This document shows, one piece after another, positions 40,885-63,888 of a stretch of DNA of 64,000 nt. Origin of the DNA: Candidatus Heimdallarchaeum aukensis (GTDB lineage: Archaea; Asgardarchaeota; Heimdallarchaeia; Heimdallarchaeales; Heimdallarchaeaceae); NCBI GenBank assembly GCA_021513695.1, contig CP084166.1:2432001-2496000 (forward strand), written 5' to 3'. How positions within the stretch are numbered: position 1 is the stretch's first letter; each line of letters opens with the position of its first letter. The notes beneath the pieces were generated by a model. That model saw nothing but the letters and a program-made list of their open reading frames with translations. It had not been told where the DNA came from and did no database searches. The position numbers were made by a program, and so were the translations under genes.

Positions 40885-41101
40885 GCCTATTTCTCTAATT
40901 TTTTTACATCTAAATAGTTATAGGATTTGGTTTCGCTTTTTCTATTTTTTTGTATAACTCTTTTGTAATATCCTCTCTCCACTTAAAAAAAGTAAAACTA
41001 TCATCAGCATTTTTGATTTGATTTTACAATATCTTTTATGTATTCATAAGAAAAAATGTTACAAACAATTAATCTTTTAAATAAGTATTAGTTTAAATTT
41101 T

Positions 41102-42166
41102 TTGATGAAGGAAGGACTACTCAAATACTACTTCGCAAACATACAACAAAACCTTTCAAATGTAAAAGATTATTTTCAACCTTATCTAGTTGAATTTAGA
41201 GATCATGTAGAAAAAACAAAATTTGAAGGAAAAGCAATATATATGCTGGATTTTCTTTTTATTCTATATTTATTTGTTATAGCACTGTTGGGTAGAGTAT
41301 TTGTAGTAAGAATAAATATTATGACCATTTTATTAATATTTGGTATACTAATTATTTCAGTTATAATGTACAAAGTAGAGCCTATCAAATTTAAGAAACC
41401 ATTTTCTTTATTGCTAGACTTTAGTCCTTTTATTTTTATTTGGCTGAGTTATGATTCTCTGGCAATTGTACAAGAAAAACTCATTTATCCAAGAGTGCAT
41501 ACAACTGAATTATATAACCTCGATATGAAGCTTTTTTCTTGGATGCTTAGAGGATTATCACCTAATGAATGGTTTGCAACTACTTTCTCCTCTTTAACTG
41601 TGGATGTGTTTTTTGGCTTTACTTATATTCTCCATACAGTAATCCCGTTTATTATTATTGTTTTAATGCTCCTTGGAAAAGATAGAAAAAATATACGGTT
41701 TACAGTTTTGTCATTTTCAATTGTTTCACTGATCTCGTTTATCACCTATGTTGTTTTTCCTGCAGCAGCTCCGTGGTATATAGCACAATATGGGTTTAAT
41801 TCTCCCTCTCCAAACATTTCCTACAGTGAAAGTGTGACTGCAGGTTTAAGTAGAATAGATGAGTTATTAGGAATAAGTTTGTTTCAAACAGTTTATAGCT
41901 TTGAAAGTAACTCTTTTGCAAGTTTACCAAGCGTGCATGCAGCTTATGCTATGTCAGCAGCTCTTTGCGCATATAATAAGTGGAAGAAAAAATCCTTGAT
42001 ATTTACTGCTCCTTATGTTTTTGCTATTCTCTTTGGAGCAATTTATTTCTATCACCATTTTGTGATTGATTTAATAGTTGGAGTAGCATATTCTCTTATT
42101 GCTCATTTCCTAACCCAAAAAATTGTTAAAAAAGCTAGTAATAATGAAAAATTATTCCTAAAATAA
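41102..42166 (+). CDS. PAP2-superfamily membrane phosphatase / phosphotransferase-like protein
   Basis: The polytopic membrane protein has PAP2 motif 2-like SLPSVHAAYA and motif 3-like YFYHHFVIDLIVG. Confidence 0.5.
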   Translation: MMKEGLLKYYFANIQQNLSNVKDYFQPYLVEFRDHVEKTKFEGKAIYMLDFLFILYLFVIALLGRVFVVRINIMTILLIFGILIISVIMYKVEPIKFKKPFSLLLDFSPFIFIWLSYDSLAIVQEKLIYPRVHTTELYNLDMKLFSWMLRGLSPNEWFATTFSSLTVDVFFGFTYILHTVIPFIIIVLMLLGKDRKNIRFTVLSFSIVSLISFITYVVFPAAAPWYIAQYGFNSPSPNISYSESVTAGLSRIDELLGISLFQTVYSFESNSFASLPSVHAAYAMSAALCAYNKWKKKSLIFTAPYVFAILFGAIYFYHHFVIDLIVGVAYSLIAHFLTQKIVKKASNNEKLFLK

Positions 42167-42227
42167 GTTAAAGAAAGAAGAATACCAATAAAGTTAAAAA
42201 ACACCAATAAATAAAAAAATGGTTTAA

Positions 42228-42386
42228 ATGGAAAGTTTAATTTTGTTTGAGTTATCAAGAGAAGAAGCAATTACTTTGCACAAATTTCTTTTAAGAATTA
42301 ATAAACAAGGATCTATTATTTTTCAAAATCAGAAAGAAAAAGAGCTAATCTCAGAGCTAAGCAATCTATTAGAACAAGAGCTTAAG
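42228..42386 (+). CDS. small hypothetical ORF (52 aa), not in the ORF track
   Basis: My translation is MESLILFELSREEAITLHKFLLRINKQGSIIFQNQKEKELISELKQSIRTRA. It has no motif and low support. Confidence 0.2.
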
Positions 42387-42496
42387 TAAGATTCATTTTT
42401 ATTTTGTTAAGAGCAGTTGTTAATTTCTTGAGCTTAATTGCTGATTTTTTAAATACGAAACAACTTTTATTTGTAAAAAGTTTCTAAATAATATGT

Positions 42497-43666
42497 ATGC
42501 AAAAAAGAAAGCCTTTTTCTTATGTCTTAATTATAATTTTACTTTCTTATAGTAATCCTACTTGCCAAATAAGTAAAAAAGTCTTATCCTTAAATGAGAA
42601 TAATTCCTTTCAACTGCTATCAAGTATACAGAAAGGTTTTTCTTTTACTCCTTGGGAAGAAAACTCCCTGAAAAAAATAGAAGCAAATAATTCGCTGTTA
42701 GAACTTAAAGAGACTGGAACAGAATGGGTAGTACTTTGTTTCTGGTATTTTCAAGATGAAAGAACTTCTACAGTTATAGAACCTGATTATAATCTATATA
42801 GTGTAAATATTTCAGATGTTATTTCTTACATTGACATAATTCACGAACAGAATATGAAGGTTGTATTAAAGCCGATGCTAGACCTTAGAACAGGAGAGTG
42901 GAGAGCTTATATAGAACCTTCTGAAGAATGGTTTAAAGCATACACCGAATTTATAACTTTCTGGGCTGAAATAGCACAAAGTAAAGGAGTAGAATTTTTT
43001 GTTGTTGGTTGTGAACTTGACGGCACAATTTCAGATACAAATAATTGGATAAAAACGATAAATGCTGTAAGAGAAGTTTACAAAGGACCAATAACTTATG
43101 CTGCAAACTACGATATTTACGAACAAATAGAATTTTGGGACTATTTAGATTATATTGGTATAAATGCTTATTTTCCTTTGTCAGATACAACTAATCCCAC
43201 TCTTGAACAATTAAAACTAGGGTGGGACAGTTATATTCCCCAACTACATTCATTTTCAATCCAACATAACAGAAGTATAATCTTTACAGAAATAGGTTAT
43301 AGAAGCTTAAACGGAGCGAACAAGGATCCTTGGAATTGGGAAAGAAAAGGGATCAAGGATGAAAGAGAGCAATATCTTTGTTACGAAGCAACTTTTGAGA
43401 CAATAGCAAATTTATCTTGGATAGCTGGTCTTTATTGGTGGAATTGGGAAGTTAACCCTGAAGATGAAAGTGCAACTGGTTATAGCCCCCACAATAAACT
43501 AGCAGAAAAAATTTTGAAACATTGGTATAAAGGAGAACCTCTTAAAGATCTTCCTAAAAGGAATGTCTATGTGTGGGTGATTACAGGTTCTGTGTTAATA
43601 ATGGCTGCTTTTTTTGTTGTTTTTCTCAAATATAGACGTAAACTATCTTTGTCTAAAAAAACATAA
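42497..43666 (+). CDS. secreted clan GH-A-like glycoside hydrolase (GH113/GH5-like TIM barrel) with C-terminal TM anchor
   Basis: It has a signal peptide, a candidate acid/base site VVGCELDG and the candidate nucleophile IIFTEIGY. Its C-terminal anchor is VITGSVLIMAAFFVVFLKYRRK. It is a paralog of the domain in 37018..40884. Confidence 0.5.
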   Translation: MQKRKPFSYVLIIILLSYSNPTCQISKKVLSLNENNSFQLLSSIQKGFSFTPWEENSLKKIEANNSLLELKETGTEWVVLCFWYFQDERTSTVIEPDYNLYSVNISDVISYIDIIHEQNMKVVLKPMLDLRTGEWRAYIEPSEEWFKAYTEFITFWAEIAQSKGVEFFVVGCELDGTISDTNNWIKTINAVREVYKGPITYAANYDIYEQIEFWDYLDYIGINAYFPLSDTTNPTLEQLKLGWDSYIPQLHSFSIQHNRSIIFTEIGYRSLNGANKDPWNWERKGIKDEREQYLCYEATFETIANLSWIAGLYWWNWEVNPEDESATGYSPHNKLAEKILKHWYKGEPLKDLPKRNVYVWVITGSVLIMAAFFVVFLKYRRKLSLSKKT

Positions 43667-48289: not shown

Positions 48290-49141
48290 TCATGAGAAGA
48301 AACCTGTAAAGTCTCCCATTGAGATCTCAACTTCTTTTTCGTTAGAAGAATGTCCTCTTTCTTCGTCTTCTGTTTCTTCATCTATCTCTTTTTCTCCTTC
48401 CGATTCTATCTTAACTTTCATAGCTAAAGCAGAATTGGGTTCTATGTATGGGAATTTGTGTATTCCTATATCTATCTTTAATTCTACAGGAGTGATAAGA
48501 GAATCATTTACTATTGCAAATTCGCCACTAGCGTAAATCCTGCTGGTGAAAACTCCGTCTGATGTTTCAATATTAAGTATATGGACTAAATTTCCTGAAA
48601 TGTTATCAGTGGTATATTCTATAGGTAGGAAATTGTCGAAAAGATATGTTTGGACAAGCTGATCTACTGATTCATTGTACATTCCGTCAGCGTCTGTATC
48701 GATATATTCAACAATATTAGAGATTTTGACCTTAAATTCTAATTCTATTTCTTGAGTGCTAGTGTCTGAAGAAAATTCTAGTTTGAACTCTATGTCATTA
48801 CCATCAGAGTTACTAGGAACTTCAAGTTCTATTTTAAATTCGTTTTCTGTATCTCCAAATTCTCTTCTAGATTTAATCTCAGCACTATGTGTAGAAACCT
48901 CTATCTCTACTTCTCGCTCGTTAATCTTTTCTTCTTCATCGTCTATACCGTCGTCATCTTCATCGTGATCCTCTTCTGTTTCTATTTCAGTTTCTTCTTC
49001 ATCTTCAGGGGGATCAGTTTCATCTTCATCGTCATCTTCATTGGCAATTACAGGTACAACTATTAGAAAACTAGTTACCATTAAGAATATAATTACGCCA
49101 CTTACAAGAATTCGTTTCTGAATTTTTTGACTGATTTTCAT
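48290..49141 (-). CDS. secreted or membrane-anchored highly acidic protein (N-terminal signal anchor followed by a D/E-rich low-complexity segment)
   Basis: KRILVSGVIIFLMVTSFLIVVPVIA is followed by NEDDDEDETDPPEDEEETEIETEEDHDEDDDGIDDEEE. The antisense ORF 48237..48536 is judged to be a shadow. Confidence 0.45.
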   Translation of the reverse strand: MKISQKIQKRILVSGVIIFLMVTSFLIVVPVIANEDDDEDETDPPEDEEETEIETEEDHDEDDDGIDDEEEKINEREVEIEVSTHSAEIKSRREFGDTENEFKIELEVPSNSDGNDIEFKLEFSSDTSTQEIELEFKVKISNIVEYIDTDADGMYNESVDQLVQTYLFDNFLPIEYTTDNISGNLVHILNIETSDGVFTSRIYASGEFAIVNDSLITPVELKIDIGIHKFPYIEPNSALAMKVKIESEGEKEIDEETEDEERGHSSNEKEVEISMGDFTGFFS

Positions 49142-50653: not shown

Positions 50654-51112
50654 ACCCTCAAGGAAATTTCAAAAACAAAATAAAAATTTTTTTTTAAAGA
50701 AAAAACAAGTTTAAATTTAAAATCTAAATAGAATTAAAAGAACAAAAAACCAAGAGTTAGAATTAAAAAAATTGAGCTGTAAAGTATCTGTTTAACATTA
50801 AACCTAGAATTAAAAAAGGTAACATAGAATATGATTGTATTTTGAGACCTTATTACAACATTAAGATAAAAGTGGTTTAATTTTTTTCATTTTTTACTTT
50901 TTTTTTTATTTTTTTCATTCTTAAGATTTTGATTTTTTGTTGTAACTGTATTCACTTTTTATTTGTAAACATTTATATGTCTTAGATAATAATAAATAGT
51001 TACAATGTTCATTTATAACATAAATCTTTTTGTTTATTTGAACATGGGTCTAGTAATAGAATAGCATGATTTAGTTTGGTGATTATATGAAAAAAATTCA
51101 GTTTTTTTTGTT

Positions 51113-51676
51113 TTGTTGATAGTTTTGTCTGCTTTTACAGCACGACAAGTTTTTTCATCTACTGATGAAAATGAAACAGATGTTCAAGAATATTTCTTTG
51201 ATTTAACCTTAATTTTTGTTGAAGATACTACTTTTGAGGATTATGCTCCATATATACAAAAATATCTCAAAGAGATAGGTATTAATGTATCAATTCTTCC
51301 TCAGAATTATTGGGATTTTTATTTTTCTGTTGTTTATGATCGCGATTTTGAGATTGCTTTAGCTGGTTATTCTAACTCTCCTGATGCATATCTCGATGAT
51401 TTGTTAATTGAAGATTCTAACAGTAACTATTGTTCATTTAATAGTTCAATTCCTTATTATAATGAAACAAATGATTATATTGAAAAAATTAAGACTACAG
51501 TCGATCCTGATACTAAGCTAACTTATTATTACAAATTACAAGAATTAGTAATGGACAAGGTTTTACCAGTTATTCCTCTCTTTACTTCAAATGAGTATAC
51601 TATTGCTTGGTCAAACTTGAAAGGTTACGATATGTCTTGGGGATTAGTAAACAGTTTACATTACATGGTTTTGTAA
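51113..51676 (+). CDS. short ABC-transporter family-5 solute-binding-protein-like ORF: signal peptide fused directly to the C-terminal lobe. The N-terminus is probably disrupted by a frameshift in an 8-T homopolymer (ATG at 51087).
   Basis: IGINVS...RDFEIALAGYSNSPDAYLDDLL...YNETNDYIEKIKTT.DPDTKLTYYYKLQELVMDKVLPVIPLF matches the SBP_bac_5 C-terminal third. The ATG at 51087 followed by T8 at 51102-51109 would give MKKIQFFFVLLIVLSAF... if one T were added. Confidence 0.45.
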   Translation: MLIVLSAFTARQVFSSTDENETDVQEYFFDLTLIFVEDTTFEDYAPYIQKYLKEIGINVSILPQNYWDFYFSVVYDRDFEIALAGYSNSPDAYLDDLLIEDSNSNYCSFNSSIPYYNETNDYIEKIKTTVDPDTKLTYYYKLQELVMDKVLPVIPLFTSNEYTIAWSNLKGYDMSWGLVNSLHYMVL

Positions 51677-51697
51677 AGTCAAAACTTAAAATTTTTA

Positions 51698-52723
51698 TTT
51701 TATATAAAGCATGTCCAAAAATTAATTTTTATTAATGTGGGGGTTTATGTCGGAATTATGAGTTTCTTTCAGATCATAGACCCCCACAAACTAAGAGAAT
51801 TCATAATTATGAATGAACCTTTCCTTAAGAAATTGGTGGATGAGAAAACGAGAGAAAGCAAGAAAGGAAGAAAAAAATAGCAGAAAGATGGGTAATATTA
51901 GCAATAACAATCATTGCAAGAATAGAAGGGATAGCCTGGAGGAAGTTAGAAGAAAAGTTGCCTCTATGCGATTTTTTGATAGAAGAGGGGTGGATGAGGA
52001 AGATTCCTTCTAAATCTACTTTTCATGCAGTGTGGGAAGCAACAGAAATTAAAATTTTAGAGCAGTGGATAATAGATTTAGGGGGAGAAATAGTGAGAAA
52101 AAAAGGGTTGAAAGCTATGGCAGTGGACAGTTCAGGGTTTAAAATTCGTTAAGCTTCTGTTTGGCGTTTTCTCAAGTGGTCAAGAGGGACACTAAAGAAA
52201 TCCTCCCAACTAAACTTTTCTGGAAGATACACCTTATAGTTGGTTTACCCTCCAGAGCTGTAGTCTCTCTAGCTCATTCAGCTAGTAACACTCACGATAG
52301 TAAAGTCTTCGGTTTACTATGGCAGAAACTTCCTTCTGCACTCTTAAGACCGTTCTTGAGATTCTATGATGACTGCGCCTACTGGACAGAAAATATCGTC
52401 GGTCTTCTTAGCCAACATTCTTTTTTCCCTGTTATTCCCCCAAAAAGTAATGCTCGTTATCCCTCTCCTCCTCCCCTCGGACCAATAGTTCAAGCTCATC
52501 GTCTCTACCCTGGTCTCTATCGTCGTAATCATCACCCCGAGTATCGTAGTAGTATTGAACATGTCTTTGGTCTTCTCAAACTCTCTCTTCCGCCCATCCT
52601 TGATCGTTTACCCTCTACTATTCTTTCTACGCTTTACAGTTCTCTTCTCTGTTACAACTACCTTTTACTCCTTCGGACCGTTTAGTAGGTGAAAAAGAAT
52701 TTTTGGACATGCTTTATATAAAA
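51698..52723. mobile_element. insertion sequence, IS4/IS5 superfamily (IS5-like), 1026 bp, with perfect 26-bp terminal inverted repeats; the transposase is degraded
   Basis: The left end 51698-51723 is ttttatataaagcatgtccaaaaatt. The right end 52698-52723 is its exact reverse complement. The interior is markedly GC-richer than the flanks, and it carries the transposase C-terminal motif YRSSIEHVFGLLK (IS5 Y-R-IE-F-LK). Confidence 0.75.
51813..52685 (+). pseudogene. IS5-family DDE transposase split over three ORFs in frames 0/+1/0 (51813-52013, 51958-52152, 52161-52685)
   Basis: ORF2 has the DDE D1 region MAVDSSGFKI. ORF3 has the C-terminal YRSSIEHVFGLLK. Two opposite frame shifts argue for decay rather than programmed frameshifting. 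Confidence 0.65.
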
Positions 52724-52783
52724 CGAAATTATCGACACTTTTGTATGCAATATTTTATAATTTGTTATTTTTTGTTTTAGTTA

Positions 52784-54421
52784 ATGAGTGAAAAAGTAAC
52801 AAAAAAGAAATTACGTGAATTAACACTTTGGGGAAAGGAAGAACCTGAAAAGCTTAGTGAAGGATTAGTAAAAGAGCTTAGTTTACTTATTCCTTCTTGG
52901 AAAATTAAGGAATTAAAAGAAGAAGAATTAGAACAAGAAGTGAGTATACCTCCTAACAGTTTGTCAGAAAAACAAATAGCAGAGTTAAAAGAAATTGTAG
53001 GAGAGAATAATCTAAATTTGGATGCTATTACTAGAATCATGTATTCTCATGGAGGAGCAGGAGAAGATTTAATTAGAGTTAGAACAGCTAATTTTTCTTT
53101 GTTAACTGAAGCAGTTGTTCATCCAGAAACAGAAGAACAAATTATCGCTGTGATGAAATTCTGTGAAAAAAACAATCTTTCTCTGATAGTAGTGGGAGGA
53201 AGAACAGGAGTTACACGGGCTACAAATCTATCAAAAAAAGGAATAACAATAGATTTACGTCCACATTTTACAAAAATAATTCACTTTGATAAAGAACAGT
53301 TATTAGTTAGAGTTCAAACAGGAATCTTGGGGCCAGAGTTGGAGGATTATTTACAGAGAAGAGGATGTACTCTAGGTCATTTTCCCCAATCTTTTGAACA
53401 ATCTTCTGTTGGAGGATGGATCGCTTCAAGAAGTGCAGGACAAAATTCTTCTTTAGTAGGAAAAATAGAAGATATGGTTATTAGCCTTCGAGTTTGCACT
53501 CCTCAGGGTATAGTAGAATCACACCTTTCTCCTGCTAGAGCTACTGGTCCCCAGTGGTTCAGATATTTTATTGGCAGTGAAGGAACATTAGGAATTATTA
53601 CTGAAGCTGTGCTTAAAATCAGGACCGATGAAACAAGAAACAGAAAATTTGCTAGTTTTATGTTTCCTTCTTTTCAAGATGGAATAAACGCAATGAGAGA
53701 AATATATCAAGGAGAATTTATTCCAGCTATCGGTAGACTTTCATGTGGAAATGAAACACAAGCCTATTTGCTCTTAAATAGGGAAGGAAAGGTGAGATTA
53801 AAAGATAAACTAATAGAATTTATATTGAAAACCCTCAAATTTTACCCAATGCGACGAGCAGTATTTCTTACTGTCTTTGAAGGAAGTAAAGAATATGTAA
53901 AAAAAGCCAAAAAGAGAGTAAAAAAGATAGCTTTAAGACATAAAGGATTGCCTGCTGGAGGGAGTTATTCTAAAAAATGGTTTGAAGATCGATTTGAACA
54001 TCCACATTTAAGAGACAGCTTGCTAGATAAAGGACTTATAGTAGATACTCTTGAGACAGCTAGTACTTGGGATAATGTTCCTATATTAGAGAAAAAAGTG
54101 AAAGAAGCAGTAAAAGATATTTGCCCACTAACTATTGCTCATCTTTCTCATAGTTATCCATCTGGTTCAGCAATATACTTTACTTTCTTCATACCTTTAC
54201 AGAAAAACAAAGGATTAGAACAAATTAGAGAGTTGCAGAAGAGAGTAATTACTACTTTTCAAAAAAATGGAGGAGTAGTTTCTCACCACCATGGTATAGG
54301 TAAAGCATTCAAAGAGTGGGGAAAGAAAGAGTGGGGAGAAACAGCTTTAAAAATGGCTGAAGGAGTAAAAAAAGAACTAGATCCTGATAATATTCTTAAT
54401 CCTGATAATTTTCCTTTTTAA
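52784..54421 (+). CDS. FAD-linked oxidase (FAD_binding_4 + FAD-oxidase_C), GlcD/D-lactate dehydrogenase / alkyl-DHAP-synthase-like, with ~105-aa N-terminal extension
   Basis: It has the FAD-binding PCMH domain VVHPETEEQIIAVMKFCEKNNLSLIVVGGRTGV...GITIDL and the C-terminal motif VSHHHGIGK, which is typical of this family. Confidence 0.7.
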   Translation: MSEKVTKKKLRELTLWGKEEPEKLSEGLVKELSLLIPSWKIKELKEEELEQEVSIPPNSLSEKQIAELKEIVGENNLNLDAITRIMYSHGGAGEDLIRVRTANFSLLTEAVVHPETEEQIIAVMKFCEKNNLSLIVVGGRTGVTRATNLSKKGITIDLRPHFTKIIHFDKEQLLVRVQTGILGPELEDYLQRRGCTLGHFPQSFEQSSVGGWIASRSAGQNSSLVGKIEDMVISLRVCTPQGIVESHLSPARATGPQWFRYFIGSEGTLGIITEAVLKIRTDETRNRKFASFMFPSFQDGINAMREIYQGEFIPAIGRLSCGNETQAYLLLNREGKVRLKDKLIEFILKTLKFYPMRRAVFLTVFEGSKEYVKKAKKRVKKIALRHKGLPAGGSYSKKWFEDRFEHPHLRDSLLDKGLIVDTLETASTWDNVPILEKKVKEAVKDICPLTIAHLSHSYPSGSAIYFTFFIPLQKNKGLEQIRELQKRVITTFQKNGGVVSHHHGIGKAFKEWGKKEWGETALKMAEGVKKELDPDNILNPDNFPF

Positions 54422-54559
54422 TACTTTTTTCTCTACTTAACACATCTAATTTTAATATTAAGAAAATAGGGTTCGTTTATAATATAAATTAATAGATTAA
54501 AAATAGCGCTCGCTTGAAAAATTAGCTGTTATGAATTAGAAAAAACTAAATAACCTTTT

Positions 54560-56212
54560 ATGCAATGCGAAATTATGCATAGAAATAGACAAATACAAAA
54601 ACTTCAGACAGAAATTTTTGATATTATCGTCATCGGTGGAGGGATAAATGGGTTAGGAGTAGCTCGTGATGCAGCTTTAAGAGGGTTAAAGGTTGCTTTA
54701 ATTGAAAAAGGAGATTTTGGTTCAGGAACAAGCTCAGCTAGTGCTAAGTTAATCCATGGAGGATTGAGATATTTAGAAACTTATCAGTTTAAAATAGTAT
54801 TAGAAAGTGTGAAAGAACGTAATATCCAATTAAAGGTCGCTCCTCATATAGTAAAACCTATTCATTTTGTTATTCCCACTTTTAAGGGTGATAGAGTAAA
54901 GAAATGGTTGATATTGTTAGGTTTATATGTTTATGACCTTTTTTCTATGTTTAAGAGACCTAGACATAAAAATCTAAGCAAAAAAAGGATTTTGGAACTA
55001 GTTCCATGGCTAAAAAAGGAAAAACTGAACGGTGGAGGGTTATATTGCGACGCTATAACCGATGATGCTAGATTGTGTTTGATTAATGCCCAAGCTGCTT
55101 ATGAAAATGGTGCAGTTATATTAAATTATATTCAAGCAAAGGACATAGTAAGAGAAAAGGATAATTGGTTGGTTTGTGCAAAAGATAAGATAGAAAATAA
55201 AGAAATAGAAATAAGAGGACGTACTGTTGTTTCTGTTGCTGGAGTATGGACAAAAAATCTTCTCTATAAAGAGGAAAAAGTACCAAGTATTTTATTTTCA
55301 AAAGGTTCACATTTGGTTTTTCCACAAAAATTCAAAGACTTTGGAATAACTTACAGTTATCAATCTAGAAAAGGAGGAGGATATATTATTCCATGGAAAA
55401 ATGTGACCCTTATAGGTACAACAGATAATATTTGTGACAATATTGAGGAAGCTAATCTAACACCAAAAGAAGATATTGAATTCCTTCATAAGGAAGTAAA
55501 CAGACTATGTGGTAAGAGTTCGTTCTTCGCTAAGGATCAAATACAAGCAACTTTTGCTGGAATAAGACCTCTCTTTATTGATAAAAAGGAGAAAGAAAAA
55601 GAGATAACTGATATATCTCGTGAATACAAAATTACAGAATTAGAAAAAGGGTTAATCGTTGTTATAGGTGGAAAACTCACTACATATAGATTACTCGCTA
55701 AAAAAGTAGTAGATAAAATAACAAAGAAACATTTGAAAATTAGAAGAAAATGTTTAACTCATAAAGCAAAGTTACCAGGGTCAGACGTGGAAAACTATGA
55801 AAAAGAAGAAAAAAGAATTCTTAAAGAATTAGAGTCAATGAATATAGAACCAATTTGCGCTTCACACTTAATAAACACGTACGGTACAAGAGTAGATAAA
55901 ATAATAGAAATAGCAAAAGAAAAACCATCTTTAAAGGATAGAATCTCACAAAATAAACCAATCATTAAGGCAGAAATAGAATATATGCTTGCTAATGAGT
56001 TTGTTGAAACACTAGAAGATATAATGATTAGACGTACATGGTTAAACCTTGAACAAGATCACGGTTTTGATTGTCTTGATTATATTTCCAATTGTTTAAG
56101 AAAAGAATACGAGAAAAAGCATTCAAAAGAAAAAGCTACAGAGATGATTAATCAGCAACTTATAAGCTATAAGGAATATATATCAAAAATGGAGAAAAGA
56201 ATAAATTATTGA
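54560..56212 (+). CDS. FAD-dependent glycerol-3-phosphate dehydrogenase (GlpA/GlpD family)
   Basis: FDIIVIGGGINGLGVARDAALRGLKVALIEKGDFGSGTSSASAKLIHGGLRYLE is the GlpD/GlpA N-terminus. GTTDN and a C-terminal helical domain are also present. Confidence 0.75.
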   Translation: MQCEIMHRNRQIQKLQTEIFDIIVIGGGINGLGVARDAALRGLKVALIEKGDFGSGTSSASAKLIHGGLRYLETYQFKIVLESVKERNIQLKVAPHIVKPIHFVIPTFKGDRVKKWLILLGLYVYDLFSMFKRPRHKNLSKKRILELVPWLKKEKLNGGGLYCDAITDDARLCLINAQAAYENGAVILNYIQAKDIVREKDNWLVCAKDKIENKEIEIRGRTVVSVAGVWTKNLLYKEEKVPSILFSKGSHLVFPQKFKDFGITYSYQSRKGGGYIIPWKNVTLIGTTDNICDNIEEANLTPKEDIEFLHKEVNRLCGKSSFFAKDQIQATFAGIRPLFIDKKEKEKEITDISREYKITELEKGLIVVIGGKLTTYRLLAKKVVDKITKKHLKIRRKCLTHKAKLPGSDVENYEKEEKRILKELESMNIEPICASHLINTYGTRVDKIIEIAKEKPSLKDRISQNKPIIKAEIEYMLANEFVETLEDIMIRRTWLNLEQDHGFDCLDYISNCLRKEYEKKHSKEKATEMINQQLISYKEYISKMEKRINY

Positions 56213-56355
56213 AAAGATAAACTTAATTTTGCACAAAGTAACTGTAATCCAATCTTGTTGTCAGTACGACAGAAGTAAATCAGTTTTATATAGTAAATTG
56301 AAATGTTTACTGATGTTTACTATATCTTTATTAAGTCATTAGCATAAATTTCTCT

Positions 56356-56901
56356 TTGATGAAAAAAGCAGTATATTTAACTAAGTTTGTATTTATAGTT
56401 TTAATTCTATCTTATTCAGCAATAATCACCTTTTCAGAAAATACAAATGAAAATGATTATTTCTTTTCTATAAACTTACTATCTCCTAATCCTTCTTGCT
56501 GTCCTAATGAATATGCCTACCAAATGGAAGAAGAATTACCAAAAATTGGTATTAATATTAGTCACCATGAATCAACCGGTTGGGGTAATATTATGCCCAG
56601 AACATGGGGTTATCCCGTTGGTGAAGAAGGTAAGTTTGATTATATACCCACCTATGAAGAAGGAGGATACGATATCCTCTTTGTAGGTTGGTGTTGGAAA
56701 CTAGATTGGGATCCAACAGGACTGTTTGATTCACCAAGTATAGTGCCGAACGGAGATAATGTATACCAATATAACAATCCTGAATTTGATACAAAGCTTG
56801 TTGAGTATACGACTGAACTAAATGATGAAGAACGTATTGAAAAAGCAAAAGAATTACAAGCTATTATTTATGAAGACCTGCCAGCTATAACCATGACTTA
56901 A
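56356..56901 (+). CDS. short SBP family-5-like ORF (signal peptide + C-terminal lobe), paralog of 51113..51676, truncated right after the conserved EDLPAI region
   Basis: The signal peptide MMKKAVYLTKFVFIVLILSYSAIITFS is followed by IGINIS...YDILFVGW..DWDPTGLFDS...NVYQYNNPEFDTKLVEYTTELNDEERIEKAKELQAIIYEDLPAI. Confidence 0.45.
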   Translation: MMKKAVYLTKFVFIVLILSYSAIITFSENTNENDYFFSINLLSPNPSCCPNEYAYQMEEELPKIGINISHHESTGWGNIMPRTWGYPVGEEGKFDYIPTYEEGGYDILFVGWCWKLDWDPTGLFDSPSIVPNGDNVYQYNNPEFDTKLVEYTTELNDEERIEKAKELQAIIYEDLPAITMT

Positions 56902-57417
56902 TGCACTTAAGGCGAAGCCATAAGGTTTTTTGAATTTAAATTCTACTGTATCATTATCTATCGCCTTAATTGAATCGTTATTTTCGAACAAGCTTGTTAG
57001 TTCTTTGTAAAATGGTGTGTTTAGCGCTTTTGTCATAAACAGTTCATACGTATAATCTACATCATAAGCTGTTACTTTATCCCCATTAGAGAAATAGGCG
57101 TTGGGATTAATATCTACTCTAATTACTTTCTTATCTTCGCTAATGGTGTAATTTTTAGCTATAACTGGTTCCATCAGATGAGTTTCCTGAGAACGTTCAA
57201 AAAGTCCATAATAGACACAATTCATCCATAGTTTATCATAATATGATTCTTGTATAAAAATGCTGTATTCTGTTAACTCTGCGGGGATAGTCCAACTAAT
57301 ATTATCTCCACCTATTTTTTCCCAATTTTCTGAACGATGAGCACTGTTAATTAATAAAGTAGGATCAATACCTTTGACACTCTTATTGCACAGATAAATT
57401 TCTTCGAAGTAAAGCAT
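56854..57417 (-). pseudogene. N-terminal lobe fragment of an ABC family-5 solute-binding protein, encoded on the opposite strand and lacking a signal peptide
   Basis: GLFERSQETHLMEPVIAKNYTISEDKKVIRVDINPNAYFSNGDKVTAYDVDYTYE and SIKAIDNDTVEFKFKKPYGFALSALS align with the DppA/OppA N-terminal domain. Confidence 0.55.
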
Positions 57418-57420
57418 GGT

Positions 57421-58128
57421 ATAATAAACAAAAAACTAGTAAGTCAATATATAGAAGAAAATGGATACAAACTTACAGTCCTAGATCAAGCTCTGGTAAC
57501 AAGCACAGGACCATACATGCTAAATGTTTCTGAGTTTAATACAAGTAAAAGTATAGTAACACTCAGACCAAATCCATATTGGTCTATTACAGAAAAAAAA
57601 CCAGTAAACAAACTAATATTCCAGTACATAAGTGGTAAAGATACAGCAATTAGTGCTTTAGCAAATGGTACAATAGATATAGTTGATTCAAGTTATTGCA
57701 CAAAAGAAACAGATTTTGAAAATGTAGAAGTGAATATCCTAATAGCTAAAAGTATGAATACAGAAGAAATGGCTATAAATATGAAACACCCAATAATAGG
57801 AACAGGAGAACTTACACCTCTAGGAACGGCAGAAGCAGCAAAAAAAATACGCCAAGCGATAAGTCATGCAGTACCAAGAGAAACACTAGTAGAAAAAATA
57901 TTTTATGGAACAGCTATCCCAGGAGTGACTCCAATGCCAGAAGGATGTATAGGTTTTGATTCGTCATTAGAACCCTTTACTTATGACATATATCTAGCTA
58001 TTCAACTAATTGAGGAAGCAGGATTTACAAGAAATATTACAACAGACACAACAGGAAATGCTACATTAATAGTAGTAACATTGATTTCTATTTGTTATGC
58101 TGTAATCTTAAAAAGGAAAAAGAAATAA
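57421..58128 (+). pseudogene. middle-domain fragment of an ABC family-5 solute-binding protein ending in a C-terminal TM anchor; no in-frame start before 57517
   Basis: The open frame from about 57358 reads ...KKLVSQYIEENGYKLTVLDQALVTSTGPYMLNVSEFNTSKSIVTLRPNPYW...IRQAISHAVPRETLVEKIFYGTAIPG...PFTYDIYLAIQLIEEAGFT. It ends ATLIVVTLISICYAVILKRKKK. Confidence 0.5.
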
Positions 58129-58262
58129 ATTAAATCCTTCTATTAGATAACACAGCAATGAAACAATATCTCATATATATAAAGGGATTTAGGGATATTA
58201 TTCATAATTTCATATTTTCCTCTTCTATAAATATGCTCTATGTTTGTTGAACAATAAATCTA

Positions 58263-58988
58263 CTAATCATCATCTTGTAATTTTTTTTCATCTTTTTTTC
58301 TTACCCTATCTGTGAATTTAGCCAATCTGTTGTATATAAAATTGCCAAAAAGTTTCTCGATTATTGCTGGAGGAAGACCTTCTTTTTTCCTATTTAGTAT
58401 AAGTTGAGAATAGATATCATCAAAAGAATTAACAAAACCTTTATCCTCAACTATCCAGTGTTGTAAGACAACAAGGTCGTTTTTCCCATCCCAGTCAATG
58501 GTGGGAATTTGCTCTTTTGTTATTTTACCTTGTTTAAGCAAAGATTCATACAAAGCTTTGTCTAAAAGTGATTCACAAGAAATCCACAGGTTGTCCAAAA
58601 AACATTCACACCAAAAGTGGCTAGCTTGATTAGAAATTTTATTGTAAACAAAATTAGGAACAAGTGGTTTTAGAAATTCCTTTAAAGCTGATGATACTCT
58701 GAGCCTAGAAGGAATACCAACAGCTCGAAGAAAAGCCATATGAAGAGAAGTCTTATTTGCACATTCACCATAACCTTTTTTCAAAGTCCTAGAAGCTCGA
58801 GCATCAACATTTGAAATGCCAAACTTAATATTATCTCTTACCCAATAAAAAATCCTTAAAGCTTTATCAAGTTGAGTAGTTGCTCCCTCTACAATCTCAA
58901 TAACTTTATCTTGGATAACAGGATTGTTAAAATCACAACTTCGTGTGGGTTGGAGAAAAAGTTCTAGATCATTGTTAATTTTATGCAT
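58263..58988 (-). CDS. transglutaminase-like cysteine protease superfamily protein
   Basis: The core GYGECANKTSLHMAFLRAVGIPSRL has the Cys nucleophile. Downstream His (QASHFWCE) and Asp residues follow. Confidence 0.7.
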   Translation of the reverse strand: MHKINNDLELFLQPTRSCDFNNPVIQDKVIEIVEGATTQLDKALRIFYWVRDNIKFGISNVDARASRTLKKGYGECANKTSLHMAFLRAVGIPSRLRVSSALKEFLKPLVPNFVYNKISNQASHFWCECFLDNLWISCESLLDKALYESLLKQGKITKEQIPTIDWDGKNDLVVLQHWIVEDKGFVNSFDDIYSQLILNRKKEGLPPAIIEKLFGNFIYNRLAKFTDRVRKKDEKKLQDDD

Positions 58989-59247
58989 ATCTAGTCATCT
59001 TTTCTGTAAAAAAGTATGCGTTCCTATTCTTATATCTTTTGAAAAATTTAAAGATGTTTGGAAGGTTTAAAGAGACGCAAGCCTAAAAAAATTCTTCTGT
59101 GCTAATTTAAATTAAAATAAGAAGTCTTCTATAAATTTTTTTTGCCAATGGGTACTTTTCCGATTATCTCTCTTCGATAGCTGAAGTTTAAGTATTAAGT
59201 TTAAATTGATAAAATTGAAAAGAAAAAATGGAAAATACTATAAACAT

Positions 59248-59462: not shown

Positions 59463-60110
59463 TTAATTTGCAATTGTAAAGTATTTAGCAGCGAATCTGC
59501 CTGCATTTGTTAATTTAATAATATTATTTCTTCCTTCTTTTTTATTTTCAATGAGATTCTCTTTTTCAAGTTTATTTATATAATAACTTACAAGTTGAGG
59601 TCTTATATTCAGAACATCACTGATCTCTGAATTAGCTGAACAAATTTTTCCTCCTCTTTCAAGTATGAGTGTAAGTATTTTTTTGGCATTATCTTTTATG
59701 TCATCTAATTGGACTTTTGGAATGGGAAGCTTAATTATTCTATCACTTAATGGATCATTATTTTTTGGTTCTTTAATATAATAAATCTCTGAACCAGAAA
59801 AAAATCCTGCTATTACACCAGCTGATGACATGATTTTTGTACCTCCTGTAATGTTTATGTGGATTCTATTACCAATGTTCTTCTTGATAATACTAAGAAT
59901 TTTAACTACAACATCTTCTAAATCAAATTTATCAACTTCAACTAATGTACAATTAATAAATAGTTTTTCAGTTAGTGCTCTAATTGAATTAGCCTCTGTT
60001 TTTGATCCTTCATTGTAAAGAAGAAATATATCATCAATTTGATATGCATTTATTCCTTCAATTATTGGTTTTGGTGTCAATCCAACTGTCATAATATGTA
60101 CATTTCGCAT
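59463..60110 (-). CDS. Csa3-like CARF-domain + winged-HTH transcriptional regulator
   Basis: It has an N-terminal Rossmann-like CARF core (MTVGLTPKPII...IFLLYNEGS...RIHINITGGTKIMSSAGVIAG) and a C-terminal wHTH (ISDVLNIRPQLVSYYINKLEKENLIENKKEGRNNIIKLTNAG). It is divergent from the viperin gene. Confidence 0.55.
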   Translation of the reverse strand: MRNVHIMTVGLTPKPIIEGINAYQIDDIFLLYNEGSKTEANSIRALTEKLFINCTLVEVDKFDLEDVVVKILSIIKKNIGNRIHINITGGTKIMSSAGVIAGFFSGSEIYYIKEPKNNDPLSDRIIKLPIPKVQLDDIKDNAKKILTLILERGGKICSANSEISDVLNIRPQLVSYYINKLEKENLIENKKEGRNNIIKLTNAGRFAAKYFTIAN

Positions 60111-60216
60111 GATTTAGATAATGAAAAAATATTTAAAAATATATGGTTGTATAATACAAAATTTTTTTTAATTATAAAAATAAAATTTTTAATATTGGGT
60201 TATTATAACATTATCT

Positions 60217-61095
60217 ATGAATTCCGGATTAATCGATAGGGAAACAATAAGAATGCAATCTCGTAAGTTAGTAAGTGTTAACTGGCATCTGTGGCCAAGA
60301 TGCATGAATAATTGTTCTTTTTGTTTTGGAAGATTTAATGAGATTAAAACGACCTTAAATAGAGAAAATGCGCTAAGAATTTTAAGAATCCTAGTAGATA
60401 GTGGAACTGAAAAAATTTCTTTTACAGGAGGAGAACCATTATTATGCCCTCATTTGGGAGAGTTGATAAAAGAAAGTCATAATTTAGGCTTAACAACAAT
60501 GTTGATAACAAGTGGTACAATTCTAAATACAAAATTTATTGAAGAACATCATAGGTATTTAGATTGGATCGCCTTGAGTGTTGATAGTTCAAATGAGCAT
60601 ATCCAAAAACAATTAGGAAGAGGAAACGGAAATCATGTTCACAAGATTAAAAAATTATCAAAAGATATACATTCCTATAATATCAATTTAAAAATTAATA
60701 CAGTAGTAACAAAACTTAACTGGAATGAGGACATGACTGAATTTATAGAAGAAATTGCCCCTGTTAGATGGAAAGTTTTTCAAGTCCTAAAGATTGTGGG
60801 ACAAAATGATGGTACAATAGATCAGTTGCTTATTTCTGAAGAAGAATTCAATGTTTTCGTTAAAACCCACAATCATCTGAAACCAGTAGTAGAATCTAAT
60901 AAAGATATGAAAGGCTCTTATATAATGTTAGATGCATTAGGTAGATTCTTTCAAAATTCTAATGGTTACTTACAATATAGTCAATCTATATTGGAAATTG
61001 ATCCAATAAAGGCTATTATACAGGTGGGTTGGGATTATAACAAATTTATAAAAAGAGGTGGATTATACAATTGGAATATAAAAGGGGGAGGTTAA
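60217..61095 (+). CDS. prokaryotic viperin (pVip; radical SAM ddh-nucleotide synthase homolog of RSAD2)
   Basis: It has VNWHLWPRCMNNCSFCFG (CxxxCxxC), KISFTGGEPLL, LDWIALSVDSSNE...GRGNGNHV, INLKINTVVTKLNWNEDMTEFIEEIAPVRWKVFQVL, DMKGSYIMLDALGRFF and KRGGLYNWN. This is a near motif-for-motif match to eukaryotic viperin. Confidence 0.85.
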   Translation: MNSGLIDRETIRMQSRKLVSVNWHLWPRCMNNCSFCFGRFNEIKTTLNRENALRILRILVDSGTEKISFTGGEPLLCPHLGELIKESHNLGLTTMLITSGTILNTKFIEEHHRYLDWIALSVDSSNEHIQKQLGRGNGNHVHKIKKLSKDIHSYNINLKINTVVTKLNWNEDMTEFIEEIAPVRWKVFQVLKIVGQNDGTIDQLLISEEEFNVFVKTHNHLKPVVESNKDMKGSYIMLDALGRFFQNSNGYLQYSQSILEIDPIKAIIQVGWDYNKFIKRGGLYNWNIKGGG

Positions 61096-61101
61096 ATATC
61101 T

Positions 61102-63888
61102 ATGTCAGTTCTTTATTATGAAAACCTGGAGGAAAAATTACCCGAAAAAGTAGTAGAATCAATTATGTGGTCTACTTTGCACGGTATTAAACCTTATTTA
61201 GAGTTTATTGATAGAATTGTCCGTTCTGCTATTGAAGAAAGAATTAGTATAGAAATAGAAAAGTATGATATAACTGAATTAATTTTAGAAGAGACAGAAA
61301 TTAACAAAAATATAGATAAAATTAATGAAGAAGTTATTGCGGATTATAAAGTATTACTGAAAGAAAAGAGATTAAGTAGGCAATTAAGAAAAGTTATTAA
61401 ATTAGTTGAAAAAGGTGTTGGTGTCTTATATCGCTTTGTTGAACCAAATAATGATATGGAATTGGAAAATTATGACCTAATCAAAGAACGTTTTTTGGAT
61501 GCTGATAAAGTTTTTCCACACAGAAAACTTGAATATCAGCATACTATTCGTGTTTTAGATACTTATCCTCCTCTTGATTTACTTGTGTTAAAAAAGAAGG
61601 ATATTAAAAAAAGCAAGCAGAAAATGAGAATATACCAAAGAGCAAATCTTTATCAGTATGGTGTAATAAAAGAATCGCTGGAACAACTATTAAACAGACC
61701 TTTAAAGCACAATAGAAATTTAATAAGATTATTTGAAAATGTCAAACATGTCCGTTTTGGTGATGTAATTCCTCACAAAATAAAAGAAGATGAGTGGTTA
61801 TTTCTTACGGATAAAAATCGTGTAGGAAGCCAAGATCAAAGAAAATTTGTTCAAATTGCCTTGGGGACGCCTGATCTGGCAATATTAGAAGGGCCTCCAG
61901 GTTCAGGAAAAACTACAACTATTTGTGAATTAATTTATCAAGGATTAAGACGTGGTTTAAAAATTCTATTGGTTGCATCAACTCATGTGGCTGTAGATAA
62001 TGTTTTAGAAAAATTAATGGATGAAAATTCTCCTATCTATGATGAAATAAAAAAAGTAGTCTTACCTGTTCGAATTGGAAAAACAGATAGAATATCTGAT
62101 CTAGCTACCATGTATCAAGTAGACACCTACTGGGAATCTGAAAAGGAGAAATTAAAAGATAAATTGCGTAAATTAAAAAATAAAACAGAATCTCAAAAAA
62201 TGCTGTTAGATCTATTAGATGATAAGGAAAAAGGCACATCTGATTATATGAAAAGAGTTTTCATAAAAGCTGCTAATTTAGTATGTGGAACAACAATAGG
62301 TATTCTTCGACATCCTGAAATAGAAAAAAGAAAAAAAGATAGAAAAATTACATCTACGAAACCTTATGACCTTCTTATTTTAGATGAAGCTAGTAAAACA
62401 ACCTTTCAAGAGTTTATTGTACCTGCTTTGTTAGCTAAGAAATATATTATAGTTGGGGATATTAGACAATTACCTCCTTATGTTGATGAGGATGGTATAA
62501 TTAGTAATATCCCCTCGATAACAGATTTAGAAAGCAAATTTGCTACATTGATTCATAATCTTAAAGAAGCTCAGAAGCGCAATTTATTCCCTGTTAAATG
62601 TATATTACAAATAAGTAATGACCTAAAAGATAATGATTTAGAAATAATTGAAAAGTTTACGATTAATAATGTACCATTTTATTATCTAAAAAAAGAGAAG
62701 AAAGTAGACTTATACAAACTTATGGGTTCCTCTTTGTTAATAGGAACGAAAGAAAATTTACAAAAACAAGAATCTCTGTTACCTTTAGGAATAAATTGTG
62801 TGTGCGAAGGAAACTCCTCTGCATTAGTTCCATTAAATGAATCTAAGACATTTGTAGATTTTACAATTTGGAAGAGAAAACATAATGCGATTTCATCTTT
62901 GAGGCAACCAATAAACTTACGATTTTACAATGATGAATCTTTAACTGAAGCAATAGGCTGGCGCTTAATAAGGGATTTTGAATTAAGATATGTTGATAAT
63001 GATAGATATTGGAAACAAATAGAAACATTTATCCCAGAGTACTGGGATGAAAAAAGAAAGAGAGATTTTATTAACAGACTATTTCAAATAAAGAGGTTAG
63101 CTTTTCCATCGATAATTGAATTATTGCAAAAAGGTTTCCAAAGAAGCAAAAAACAAAAAGAATTAGATATCGGTTTGATTATAACTGATGGATTACCTAA
63201 AAAAATATTACAAGAACGCCATGTTATATTAAAATATCAACAAAGGATGCATCCTGAGATATCTGCATTTCCTAGAAACAATTTTTATAATAATGAAGCA
63301 CTCCGTGATCTGCCTGAAATTGAGAAAAACAGAGTTTTTGAATATCCAAATTATAAAAATAGAACAATCTGGGTAGATGTTCGGTTAAACAAAGAAGAAC
63401 AAAAAGAAATGAAAAAAAATATGAATAGAAATAAAAAAGAGGCTAAAGTAATTATTGATGAGCTAAAAGATTTACTTGATTGGATGTCTAAAAATAGGAA
63501 ACGTGATGGAAAACCATGGATTATAGCTATTCTTCCGTTTTATAAAGGTCAAGAAAAACTAATTAGAAAAAAACTTCAATCTTATTTTAAAAGTAAACGA
63601 GTAAGAACATTTTATTGTATAGAAAAAAATGCAATAGTTGAGCTTTGTGCTGTTGATAGGTTCCAAGGGCATGAAGCTGATATTATTTTTCTATCTTTTG
63701 TAAGGAATCGTAGCACTGGTATTGGTTTTTTGGATACTCCAAATAGACTTAATGTTGCGCTAACAAGAGCTAAATATCAGTTGGTGATAGTAGGAGACAA
63801 ACAATACTTCGAAAAATTTCAAAAGAGATCAGAAATCTTGCAAAAACTTGCAGAAGAAACACCTCTAAAAGCAAAGTATAGGATCTGA
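61102..63888 (+). CDS. Upf1/MOV10-like superfamily-1 helicase (AAA_11/AAA_12, COG1112-type) with ~260-aa uncharacterised N-terminal domain
   Basis: It has Walker A GPPGSGKTTT, motif II ILDEASK, motif III IIVGDIRQLPP, motif IV-like QRMHPEISAFPRNNFY, motif V VDRFQGHEADIIFLSFVRN and motif VI LNVALTRAKYQLVIVGD. A strong SD (GGGGGAGGT) lies within the viperin stop region 6 nt upstream. Confidence 0.8.
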   Translation: MSVLYYENLEEKLPEKVVESIMWSTLHGIKPYLEFIDRIVRSAIEERISIEIEKYDITELILEETEINKNIDKINEEVIADYKVLLKEKRLSRQLRKVIKLVEKGVGVLYRFVEPNNDMELENYDLIKERFLDADKVFPHRKLEYQHTIRVLDTYPPLDLLVLKKKDIKKSKQKMRIYQRANLYQYGVIKESLEQLLNRPLKHNRNLIRLFENVKHVRFGDVIPHKIKEDEWLFLTDKNRVGSQDQRKFVQIALGTPDLAILEGPPGSGKTTTICELIYQGLRRGLKILLVASTHVAVDNVLEKLMDENSPIYDEIKKVVLPVRIGKTDRISDLATMYQVDTYWESEKEKLKDKLRKLKNKTESQKMLLDLLDDKEKGTSDYMKRVFIKAANLVCGTTIGILRHPEIEKRKKDRKITSTKPYDLLILDEASKTTFQEFIVPALLAKKYIIVGDIRQLPPYVDEDGIISNIPSITDLESKFATLIHNLKEAQKRNLFPVKCILQISNDLKDNDLEIIEKFTINNVPFYYLKKEKKVDLYKLMGSSLLIGTKENLQKQESLLPLGINCVCEGNSSALVPLNESKTFVDFTIWKRKHNAISSLRQPINLRFYNDESLTEAIGWRLIRDFELRYVDNDRYWKQIETFIPEYWDEKRKRDFINRLFQIKRLAFPSIIELLQKGFQRSKKQKELDIGLIITDGLPKKILQERHVILKYQQRMHPEISAFPRNNFYNNEALRDLPEIEKNRVFEYPNYKNRTIWVDVRLNKEEQKEMKKNMNRNKKEAKVIIDELKDLLDWMSKNRKRDGKPWIIAILPFYKGQEKLIRKKLQSYFKSKRVRTFYCIEKNAIVELCAVDRFQGHEADIIFLSFVRNRSTGIGFLDTPNRLNVALTRAKYQLVIVGDKQYFEKFQKRSEILQKLAEETPLKAKYRI

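Follow-up and report, generated by a model that had tools for sequence, protein, structure and literature searches.

We analysed a 64,000-nucleotide window of the genome of Candidatus Heimdallarchaeum aukensis (contig CP084166.1, positions 2,432,001 to 2,496,000; coordinates below are those of the window), in which three adjacent open reading frames (ORFs) between 56356 and 58128 each match a different part of a family-5 (OppA/DppA-type) solute-binding protein (SBP). GenBank lists the pieces as three 'ABC transporter substrate-binding proteins', ORF B being identical to UJG40383.1. ORF A (56356-56901, + strand) represents the 5' third of a broken gene and encodes a signal peptide (about 56356-56436, with its hydrophobic segment at residues 5-29) followed by the equivalent of the C-lobe; ATG 56359 is more likely to be its start than TTG 56356. 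The 5' third proper ends at 56895 (56356-56895), and a threonine codon and a stop gained at 56896-56901 close ORF A. ORF B (56854-57417, - strand) reads the inverted middle third, and ORF C (57421-58128, + strand) the 3' third, its first own start codon being ATG 57517. The content of ORF C is the middle domain up to an ...EEAGF helix, a short Thr-rich linker, a transmembrane (TM) anchor whose helix lies at 58060-58110 (residues 569-585), a KRKKK tail and a stop. Among the three pieces, the signal peptide is confined to ORF A. On the + strand, the frame of ORF C stays open as far upstream as 57358 and overlaps the 5' end of ORF B in antisense, and a second antisense overlap, between ORF A and ORF B, lies at 56854-56901. 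A preliminary description of the locus, made from the sequence alone, had given the three ORFs and the first overlap (57358-57417) correctly.

Searches with the Pfam profile SBP_bac_5 (PF00496) place ORF B on the N-lobe (profile positions 3-92, E 5e-19, 69 bits) and ORF C on positions 102-287 (E 8e-27, 94.7 bits), in agreement with the domain assignments of that description, and ORF A alone has no Pfam match. On a family hidden Markov model (HMM) built from 94 full-length homologs, the fragments tile the profile with neither gap nor overlap: ORF A matches positions 1-175 (E 3e-84), ORF B 175-350 (E 8e-70) and ORF C 351-591 (E 9e-91).

The inverted segment is 56896-57414, 519 bp situated inside one gene that spans 56356-58128, and it carries the end of the C-lobe equivalent, the fused old C- and N-termini and the N-lobe. 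Computational re-inversion of this segment yields one uninterrupted ORF of 1773 nt and 590 codons, with no stops and no base lost or gained, which reads ...EDLPAITM/LYFEEIYLCNKSVKGIDP... across the left junction and ...FALSALSH/GIINKKLVSQY... across the right. A full-length collinear fit to the family profile with both anchors (signal peptide and TM helix) is obtained only after re-inversion, and full-length homologs cover 100% of the reconstructed protein. The preliminary description had held that re-inverting about 56850-57420 would join the N-terminal and middle fragments; these do join, but in fact so do all three pieces.

BLASTN comparison with an intact locus from an ENA metagenome (L001, about 92% nucleotide identity) resolves the region into three gap-free collinear blocks: 55509-56895 (+, against L001 154-1569, 91.7%), 56890-57420 (inverted, against L001 2094-1564, 92.7%, no gaps) and 57415-59098 (+). 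The middle block is also inverted relative to L002 and L005. The blocks overlap by exactly 6 nt at each junction, and the breakpoints therefore lie inside ACCATG on the left (56890-56895) and its reverse complement CATGGT on the right (57415-57420), a finer placement than these 6 bp being impossible. Both junctions contain the palindrome CATG (56892 and 57415). Comparison of the junctions in the window, L001 and L002 showed that the 6-bp inverted repeat is already present in the uninverted relatives. For random breakpoints in this sequence, the probability of microhomology of at least 6 bp is 0.003, and therefore the repeat probably guided the event. Searches for an inverted repeat of at least 10 nt (7-nt seed) linking both junctions found none, only the 6-bp pair without imperfect extension; 601 other 6-bp inverted pairs occur within the gene. 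The short inverted repeats that had been anticipated near 56850 and 57420 thus exist as the ACCATG/CATGGT pair and not as long repeats. The similar peptides INNSL and IINKKL, pointed out earlier on either side of the junction, carry no real signal: FINNSL, followed by a stop, arises where ORF B continues past the inverted piece and reads ORF A in antisense, and IINKKL is genuine SBP sequence. The count of breakpoint pairs yielding an open frame is uninformative, as about 1/3 of all pairs do so because ORF A and ORF C share a frame.

Two other origins of the junctions were considered and rejected. Restriction cleavage at CATG followed by inverted re-ligation, which would be a variant of a spontaneous event, has no specific support, in that CATG is not avoided in the window (observed/expected 0.89) and the shared sequence reaches 6 bp. 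An insertion sequence (IS) element in the window is 4.2 kb distant and has no sequence in common with the junctions.

The uninverted, intact gene is found in 5/5 relatives at 88-93% amino acid identity. The closest ortholog (P0122, 93%) is continuous across both junction positions; those at 90% (P0008 on L002 and P0001 on L001) and 89% (P0123) are also uninverted, as is the ortholog of Ca. H. endolithica (P0121, UJG43104.1, 88%), which is syntenic and located between a DAO_C fragment and a transglutaminase-like gene. When GTDB species genomes and JGI metagenome contigs were scanned with patterns matching either junction, the intact H. endolithica allele was the only hit apart from chance matches in unrelated bacteria. 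The main proposal of the preliminary description, a recent inversion that broke an SBP gene, is thus corroborated by the BLASTN blocks, by the 590-residue ORF on re-inversion and by the intact syntenic gene in Ca. H. endolithica; the same arrangement in relatives as separate genes, which would have spoken against it, was not seen in any of the five.

The closed genome published for Ca. H. aukensis PM71 (3,081,793 bp), which was assembled with metaSPAdes from Illumina PE150 reads, scaffolded with Nanopore reads from DNA subjected to multiple displacement amplification (MDA), and polished at 346x (Wu et al. 2022, PMC8813620), carries the inverted state. We also found it in two Logan assemblies, which derive from runs of the same project and the same enrichment culture. 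L003 (SRR15988954, Illumina-like) is 100% identical over 6.5 kb, and L004 (SRR15988958) has the same arrangement and differs only by six 1-nt homopolymer deletions, a signature of Nanopore error. An 18-kb de Bruijn contig passes unbroken through both junctions. The occurrence of the same arrangement in two separate assemblies makes an assembly artefact unlikely, and we regard the inversion as the true state of the dominant population. Chimeric molecules formed during MDA typically contain inverted junctions, MDA was used for the Nanopore library of H. aukensis, and the closed genome was built from a metagenome, all of which could suggest that the inversion was made by chimeras or by mis-assembly and is not present in the cells. 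However, the contigs were built from Illumina PE150 reads, with no MDA reported for those libraries, and were polished at 346x; across both junctions L003 is 100% identical to the window and L004 has the same arrangement; a repeat of 6 bp is too short to mislead a de Bruijn graph with k of at least 21; and two exactly reciprocal chimeric junctions would have to dominate the consensus. Such an artefact is therefore very improbable.

The re-inverted gene shows ratios of non-synonymous to synonymous substitution rates (dN/dS) of 0.22-0.25 against its orthologs. Synonymous and non-synonymous codon changes stand at 15:8 for those specific to H. aukensis and at 15:7 for those of the sister lineage, and no secondary lesions (stops or frameshifts) occur in the 1773 nt. 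Judging from these codon comparisons, the gene was under purifying selection until very recently, and the purifying dN/dS together with the lack of secondary lesions therefore suggests a very recent event. With respect to the usual marks of a pseudogene, the frame is disrupted relative to intact orthologs, and signs of relaxed selection (raised dN/dS, lesions) are not seen.

We consider it likely that a one-off, recent inversion between short inverted repeats made a pseudogene of a permuted SBP gene. The ancestral gene in the lineage of Ca. H. aukensis PM71 would have encoded a 590-residue, membrane-anchored extracellular family-5 SBP, and a single illegitimate flip of the central 519 bp would have occurred between the pre-existing ACCATG and CATGGT. 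Recombination or replication template switching between the short inverted repeats may have been the pathway, and the event was presumably spontaneous rather than enzyme-programmed. After the flip, ORF A would retain the promoter and the signal peptide but terminate two codons past the junction. ORF B lies on the opposite strand, antisense to the original transcription and lacking a signal peptide; its ATG is borrowed from the CATG of the right junction, and it extends 12 codons into the antisense of ORF A. ORF C has neither a start codon before 57517 nor a signal peptide. An extracellular three-domain protein could hardly be rebuilt from these parts, and the locus would therefore be a pseudogene. 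We infer that the whole population carries the flip and that none of the fragments has kept a function.

A different reading of the same frames is that the pieces are three genuine, separately expressed genes, or that a signal peptide plus C-lobe forms a short family of its own, with pieces that work alone or reassemble. Every piece is indeed an open frame, ORF B has an ATG, GenBank lists the pieces as proteins, and a second ORF with similar N-terminal architecture lies 5 kb upstream. But with the signal peptide only on ORF A, the products of ORF B and ORF C would be on the wrong side of the membrane. Moreover, the ATG of ORF B and the stop of ORF A are by-products of the junctions, no other database protein has the limits of ORF B, and the upstream look-alike is a unique, frameshifted remnant beside an IS element. 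The fused architecture is found in hundreds of full-length homologs, and the intact orthologs contradict the idea. Of all the alternatives considered here, this is the one to which we assign the least probability.

If the locus is indeed a recent pseudogene, three coding sequence (CDS) entries of the closed Ca. H. aukensis genome correspond to one recently inactivated gene and should be annotated as a single pseudogene. Correct annotation matters for gene-content comparison in a lineage that is used to reason on eukaryogenesis. The locus would also offer a clean natural case of a precise inversion at a 6-bp repeat in an Asgard archaeon, with the ancestral state kept in sister genomes. The broken gene in itself is ordinary; the analysis adds a precise account of the inversion and places the gene in a widespread archaeal family of circularly permuted OppA/DppA-type proteins.

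Several points weigh against this explanation. The two assemblies come from one enrichment culture and are not biologically independent, and a minority of cells may carry the ancestral orientation, as the evidence consists of assemblies rather than reads. The predicted secreted 179-residue fragment encoded by ORF A may retain residual function. Finally, a reversible switch would likewise leave a gene with no decay at all and with clean, reciprocal junctions; such a switch would be an intragenic inverton in which a recombinase flips the 519-bp segment between an off state (three fragments) and an on state (590 residues) as a form of phase variation, the sequenced population being mostly off. 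Intragenic invertons are defined by the coexistence of both orientations in reads and are attributed to invertases (Chanin et al., bioRxiv 10.1101/2023.03.11.532203). As at our locus, the inversion lies wholly within a CDS, is flanked by inverted repeats and produces a premature stop, and the geometry fits the examples with premature stops in that study, which include one archaeal case. The perfectly reciprocal inversion with three intact frames and the non-random junction microhomology are compatible with such a switch, as are the surface exposure of the product, the position of the gene bordering a defence island (with a CARF regulator, pVip and an MkoA-like helicase) and the IS-mediated rearrangements of the region.

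The repeat, however, is only 6 bp and does not extend, which is short of the approximately 10 bp or more expected of a recombinase site (the validated example quoted by Chanin et al. has 11 bp), and 601 equivalent 6-bp pairs occur in the same gene. Except for a degenerate IS transposase, there is no recombinase gene within about 22 kb upstream and 8 kb downstream (window 34-64 kb), although a trans-acting enzyme could be encoded elsewhere in the genome. A single orientation is present in each of the two assemblies, the 18-kb de Bruijn contig is unbroken across the junctions, and all five relatives are in the ancestral orientation. No recurrent flip was found in relatives: the truncation of family members elsewhere is explained by the end of a contig or by a split on one strand, as in the homologs ending near profile positions 180 or 350, of which P0267 is a same-strand split followed by a 435-residue SBP gene and P0241 stops at a contig end. 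We thus judge a reversible inverton to be improbable, though less so than the artefact or the separate genes. If it were true, it would be the first in an Asgard archaeon, operating on a 6-bp repeat and switching a permuted surface binding protein at the border of a defence island. In either case the locus is a test case for the reversibility of archaeal intragenic inversions.

A one-off inversion has its nearest parallel in bacterial genetics. Spontaneous inversions between short inverted repeats are known from experiments in E. coli, where the repeats are somewhat longer and no mobile element is involved. Those events, like the one described here, are precise and reciprocal, with endpoints in a few bp of inverted homology. 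Relative to intragenic invertons, our locus differs by a single orientation in assemblies, a 6-bp repeat and the lack of a nearby invertase.

The domain order of the reconstructed gene is unusual for an SBP, namely signal peptide, C-lobe equivalent, fused old termini, N-lobe, middle domain and C-terminal TM anchor. As the ancestral gene is circularly permuted, the signal peptide and C-lobe equivalent therefore represent its true 5' end. The reconstructed protein scores 172.3 bits against PF00496 (gathering score 32.4), with hydrophobic segments at residues 5-29 and 565-588, and the match ends at profile position 287 of 368. In all family members tested, SBP_bac_5 positions 3-287 fall on residues of about 260-566, the match stopping just before the C-terminal TM helix. 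No NCBIfam equivalog model reaches its cut-off for the reconstructed protein. A word-indexed search retrieved 409 homologs at E <= 1e-3. Nearly all of the best 120 of these are 587-637 residues long and most cover 93-100% of the reconstructed protein; all those with a named source are from Heimdallarchaeia or other Asgard archaea. An exhaustive profile search gave 579 cluster representatives at E < 1e-30. Among 268 proteins that were collected, 198 are collinear with the reconstructed gene (mainly Heimdallarchaeia, also Bathyarchaeia), 35 are close relatives that keep the canonical order, which runs from the signal peptide through N-lobe, middle domain, C-lobe and Ser/Thr linker to the TM helix, and the remainder are partial or otherwise arranged. 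The members include a paralog of the broken gene in H. aukensis itself (P0002).

Alignments with canonical-order proteins recover the two halves in swapped order. The family profile matches solved cluster C SBPs in this way, for example PDB chain 8efz_A with positions 235-558 on residues 32-323 (independent E-value 6e-22) and positions 101-199 on residues 384-483 (independent E-value 4e-8). Similarly, BLASTP against Asgard relatives of canonical order gives swapped segment pairs, for P0171 219-557 on 38-382 (34% identity, E 1e-57) and 36-205 on 401-565 (35% identity, E 2e-21). The permutation placed the new termini in the loop that leads from the ...E(D/E)AGF helix (ending also ...AGF/Y) to the YFFSI strand, with which the C-lobe begins, and joined the old ones as ...SENW-EKIGGDNISWTIP.... 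For P0001, the ortholog at 90% identity, AlphaFold2 gave a confident model (pLDDT 91.9, pTM 0.86), and a Foldseek search with it against the PDB retrieved only cluster C SBPs, over about 360-400 columns at TM-scores of 0.4-0.5. The best matches are NikZ (4oet), OppA, DppA and MppA, all with probability 1.00. Such partial coverage at these TM-scores is as expected if no solved chain shares the connectivity. Taken together, these profile, alignment and model comparisons show that the family as a whole is circularly permuted with respect to canonical family-5 (cluster C) SBPs. We found no structure or paper describing a permuted archaeal SBP5 family, and searches of the literature for circularly permuted SBPs of the OppA type or from archaea brought up one relevant protein, TpMglB-2, which belongs to cluster B.

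Membership of family 5/cluster C (OppA, DppA, NikA/NikZ and MppA; PF00496) is supported by both sequence and fold, which the reconstructed protein shares with these proteins, and the AlphaFold2 model of P0001 with its Foldseek matches predicts the three-domain fold of cluster C. In contrast to these SBPs, the canonical order of N-lobe, middle and C-lobe is replaced by a permuted lobe order with new termini between the AGF/Y helix and the first C-lobe strand, a C-terminal TM anchor is present, and no Opp/Dpp-type permease genes adjoin the gene, here or at two loci in other Heimdall genomes (L007 and L008). Orphan SBP genes are common, so the absence of permease neighbours is compatible with transport, and a role in ligand delivery remains putative. 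At these two loci (L007 7166-11782 and L008 7139-11779), the intact permuted SBP gene follows a conserved trio encoding a 322-residue multi-TM protein (no Pfam match), an ATP-binding cassette (ABC) ATPase with a C-terminal zinc ribbon and a 157-residue TM protein; the two multi-TM proteins of the trio have no Pfam match. Not being an Opp/Dpp permease set, the trio may constitute a non-canonical partner system.

The closest precedent for the permuted family is TpMglB-2 (Tp0684; PMC4990184) of the 'cluster Bc' glucose-binding proteins, likewise ABC-type ligand-binding proteins that were circularly permuted in nature and retain two lobes in their fold. This permutation occurs in membrane-tethered proteins, and tethering was proposed as a possible driver of the permutation (Brautigam et al. 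2016, PMC4990184). TpMglB-2 differs in that it is a bacterial cluster B protein with a different cut point, whereas the archaeal family described here belongs to cluster C. In addition, a crystal structure and binding data exist for TpMglB-2, whereas our family is known from a predicted model. The permuted family provides natural material on the effects of permutation and tethering in a Venus-flytrap protein and may be of use in biosensor design.

Canonical and permuted relatives are generally 30-44% identical, and one pair reaches 60-63%. This pair consists of the P0260 cluster of Bathyarchaeia (39 members), which has the permuted topology too, and the canonical-order P0261 (14 members), which is 60-63% identical to P0260 in swapped blocks. 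In a neighbour-joining tree, 34 of the 35 canonical-order sequences fall in one clan, while P0261 is placed among the permuted ones. Circular permutation at the same loop thus seems to have occurred in archaea (Heimdallarchaeia and Bathyarchaeia) at least twice, or to have been reversed. Other arrangements are found in P0225 and P0237 (Promethearchaeota), P0206 (Thorarchaeota), P0249 and P0264, which include proteins of 1200-1700 residues with tandem SBP units. Single-unit proteins with other cut points also exist, one order being profile positions 385-562 then 32-347, and another 216-355, 384-560, then 29-195. These tandem and other-cut forms look like the duplication-fusion intermediates expected for circular permutation. 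A shorter member, P0230 (MHA1954099.1, 306 residues, Heimdallarchaeaceae), spans profile positions 1-179 and 468-590 and lacks the N-lobe; it is represented by two sequences on two contigs. It retains the signal peptide, the C-lobe equivalent, the end of the middle domain and the TM anchor, and may represent either an in-frame deletion or a short form in its own right.

The second SBP ORF of the window (51113-51676, + strand, within an SBP remnant at 51087-51676) has a signal peptide and C-lobe equivalent only and represents a divergent second member of the permuted family. Against SBP_bac_5 it matches positions 291-358 at 30.4 bits, below the gathering score of 32.4, and against the permuted-family HMM it matches positions 10-193; its family link rests on this profile match. 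A search of an index of 5.8 billion proteins for homologs returned only the self match. The ATG at 51087 is out of frame with the body of the ORF owing to a T8 run, which frameshifts the signal peptide, and the remnant stops where the N-lobe should start, 20 nt before the IS element. This comparison indicates that 51087-51676 is a decayed remnant of a permuted-family gene. The alternative offered in the preliminary description, that a signal peptide plus C-lobe forms a genuine short family with this ORF as second example, does not agree with an ORF that is unique, frameshifted, located beside an IS element and alignable to the full-length family profile. The IS element itself (51696-52725, + strand) has terminal inverted repeats of about 24-32 bp and encodes a DDE_Tnp_1 transposase (E 2e-6) split into three ORFs (51813-52013, 51958-52152 and 52161-52685). 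The locus of H. endolithica has a 198-bp IS remnant and, elsewhere in the locus, a 90%-identical copy of the IS.

Genes for glycerol-3-phosphate dehydrogenase, FAD oxidase and a transglutaminase-like protein neighbour the broken gene. Missing from both Ca. H. endolithica and L001 are the SBP remnant, the IS element, the FAD-linked oxidase gene (52784-54421) and most of the glycerol-3-phosphate dehydrogenase-like gene (54560-56212). Where the window has 50917-55509, H. endolithica (L005 8930-9126) and L001 keep only the DAO_C fragment beside the 198-bp IS remnant. This loss in the sister species looks like an IS-mediated deletion, and such a deletion would mark the neighbourhood as a rearrangement hot spot.

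Directly downstream of the broken gene lies a defence island (59463-63888), made up of genes for a CARF/Csa3-like regulator (59463-60110, - strand), a prokaryotic viperin, pVip (60217-61095, E 1.5e-85), and an MkoA-like helicase (61102-63888). The L003 contig continues past the helicase gene with genes for a 366-residue protein and a PLD-domain protein. Further upstream, the segment 47680-49468 is absent from the syntenic region of H. endolithica; within it, 48290-49141 (- strand) encodes a 283-residue protein that has a signal or TM segment and an extremely acidic region rich in Asp and Glu. At 37018-43666, a PAP2 phosphatase gene sits between two glycoside hydrolase genes of family GH113, and the larger of the two, which encodes 1288 residues with a CBM20-like domain, is conserved beside this region in H. 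endolithica.

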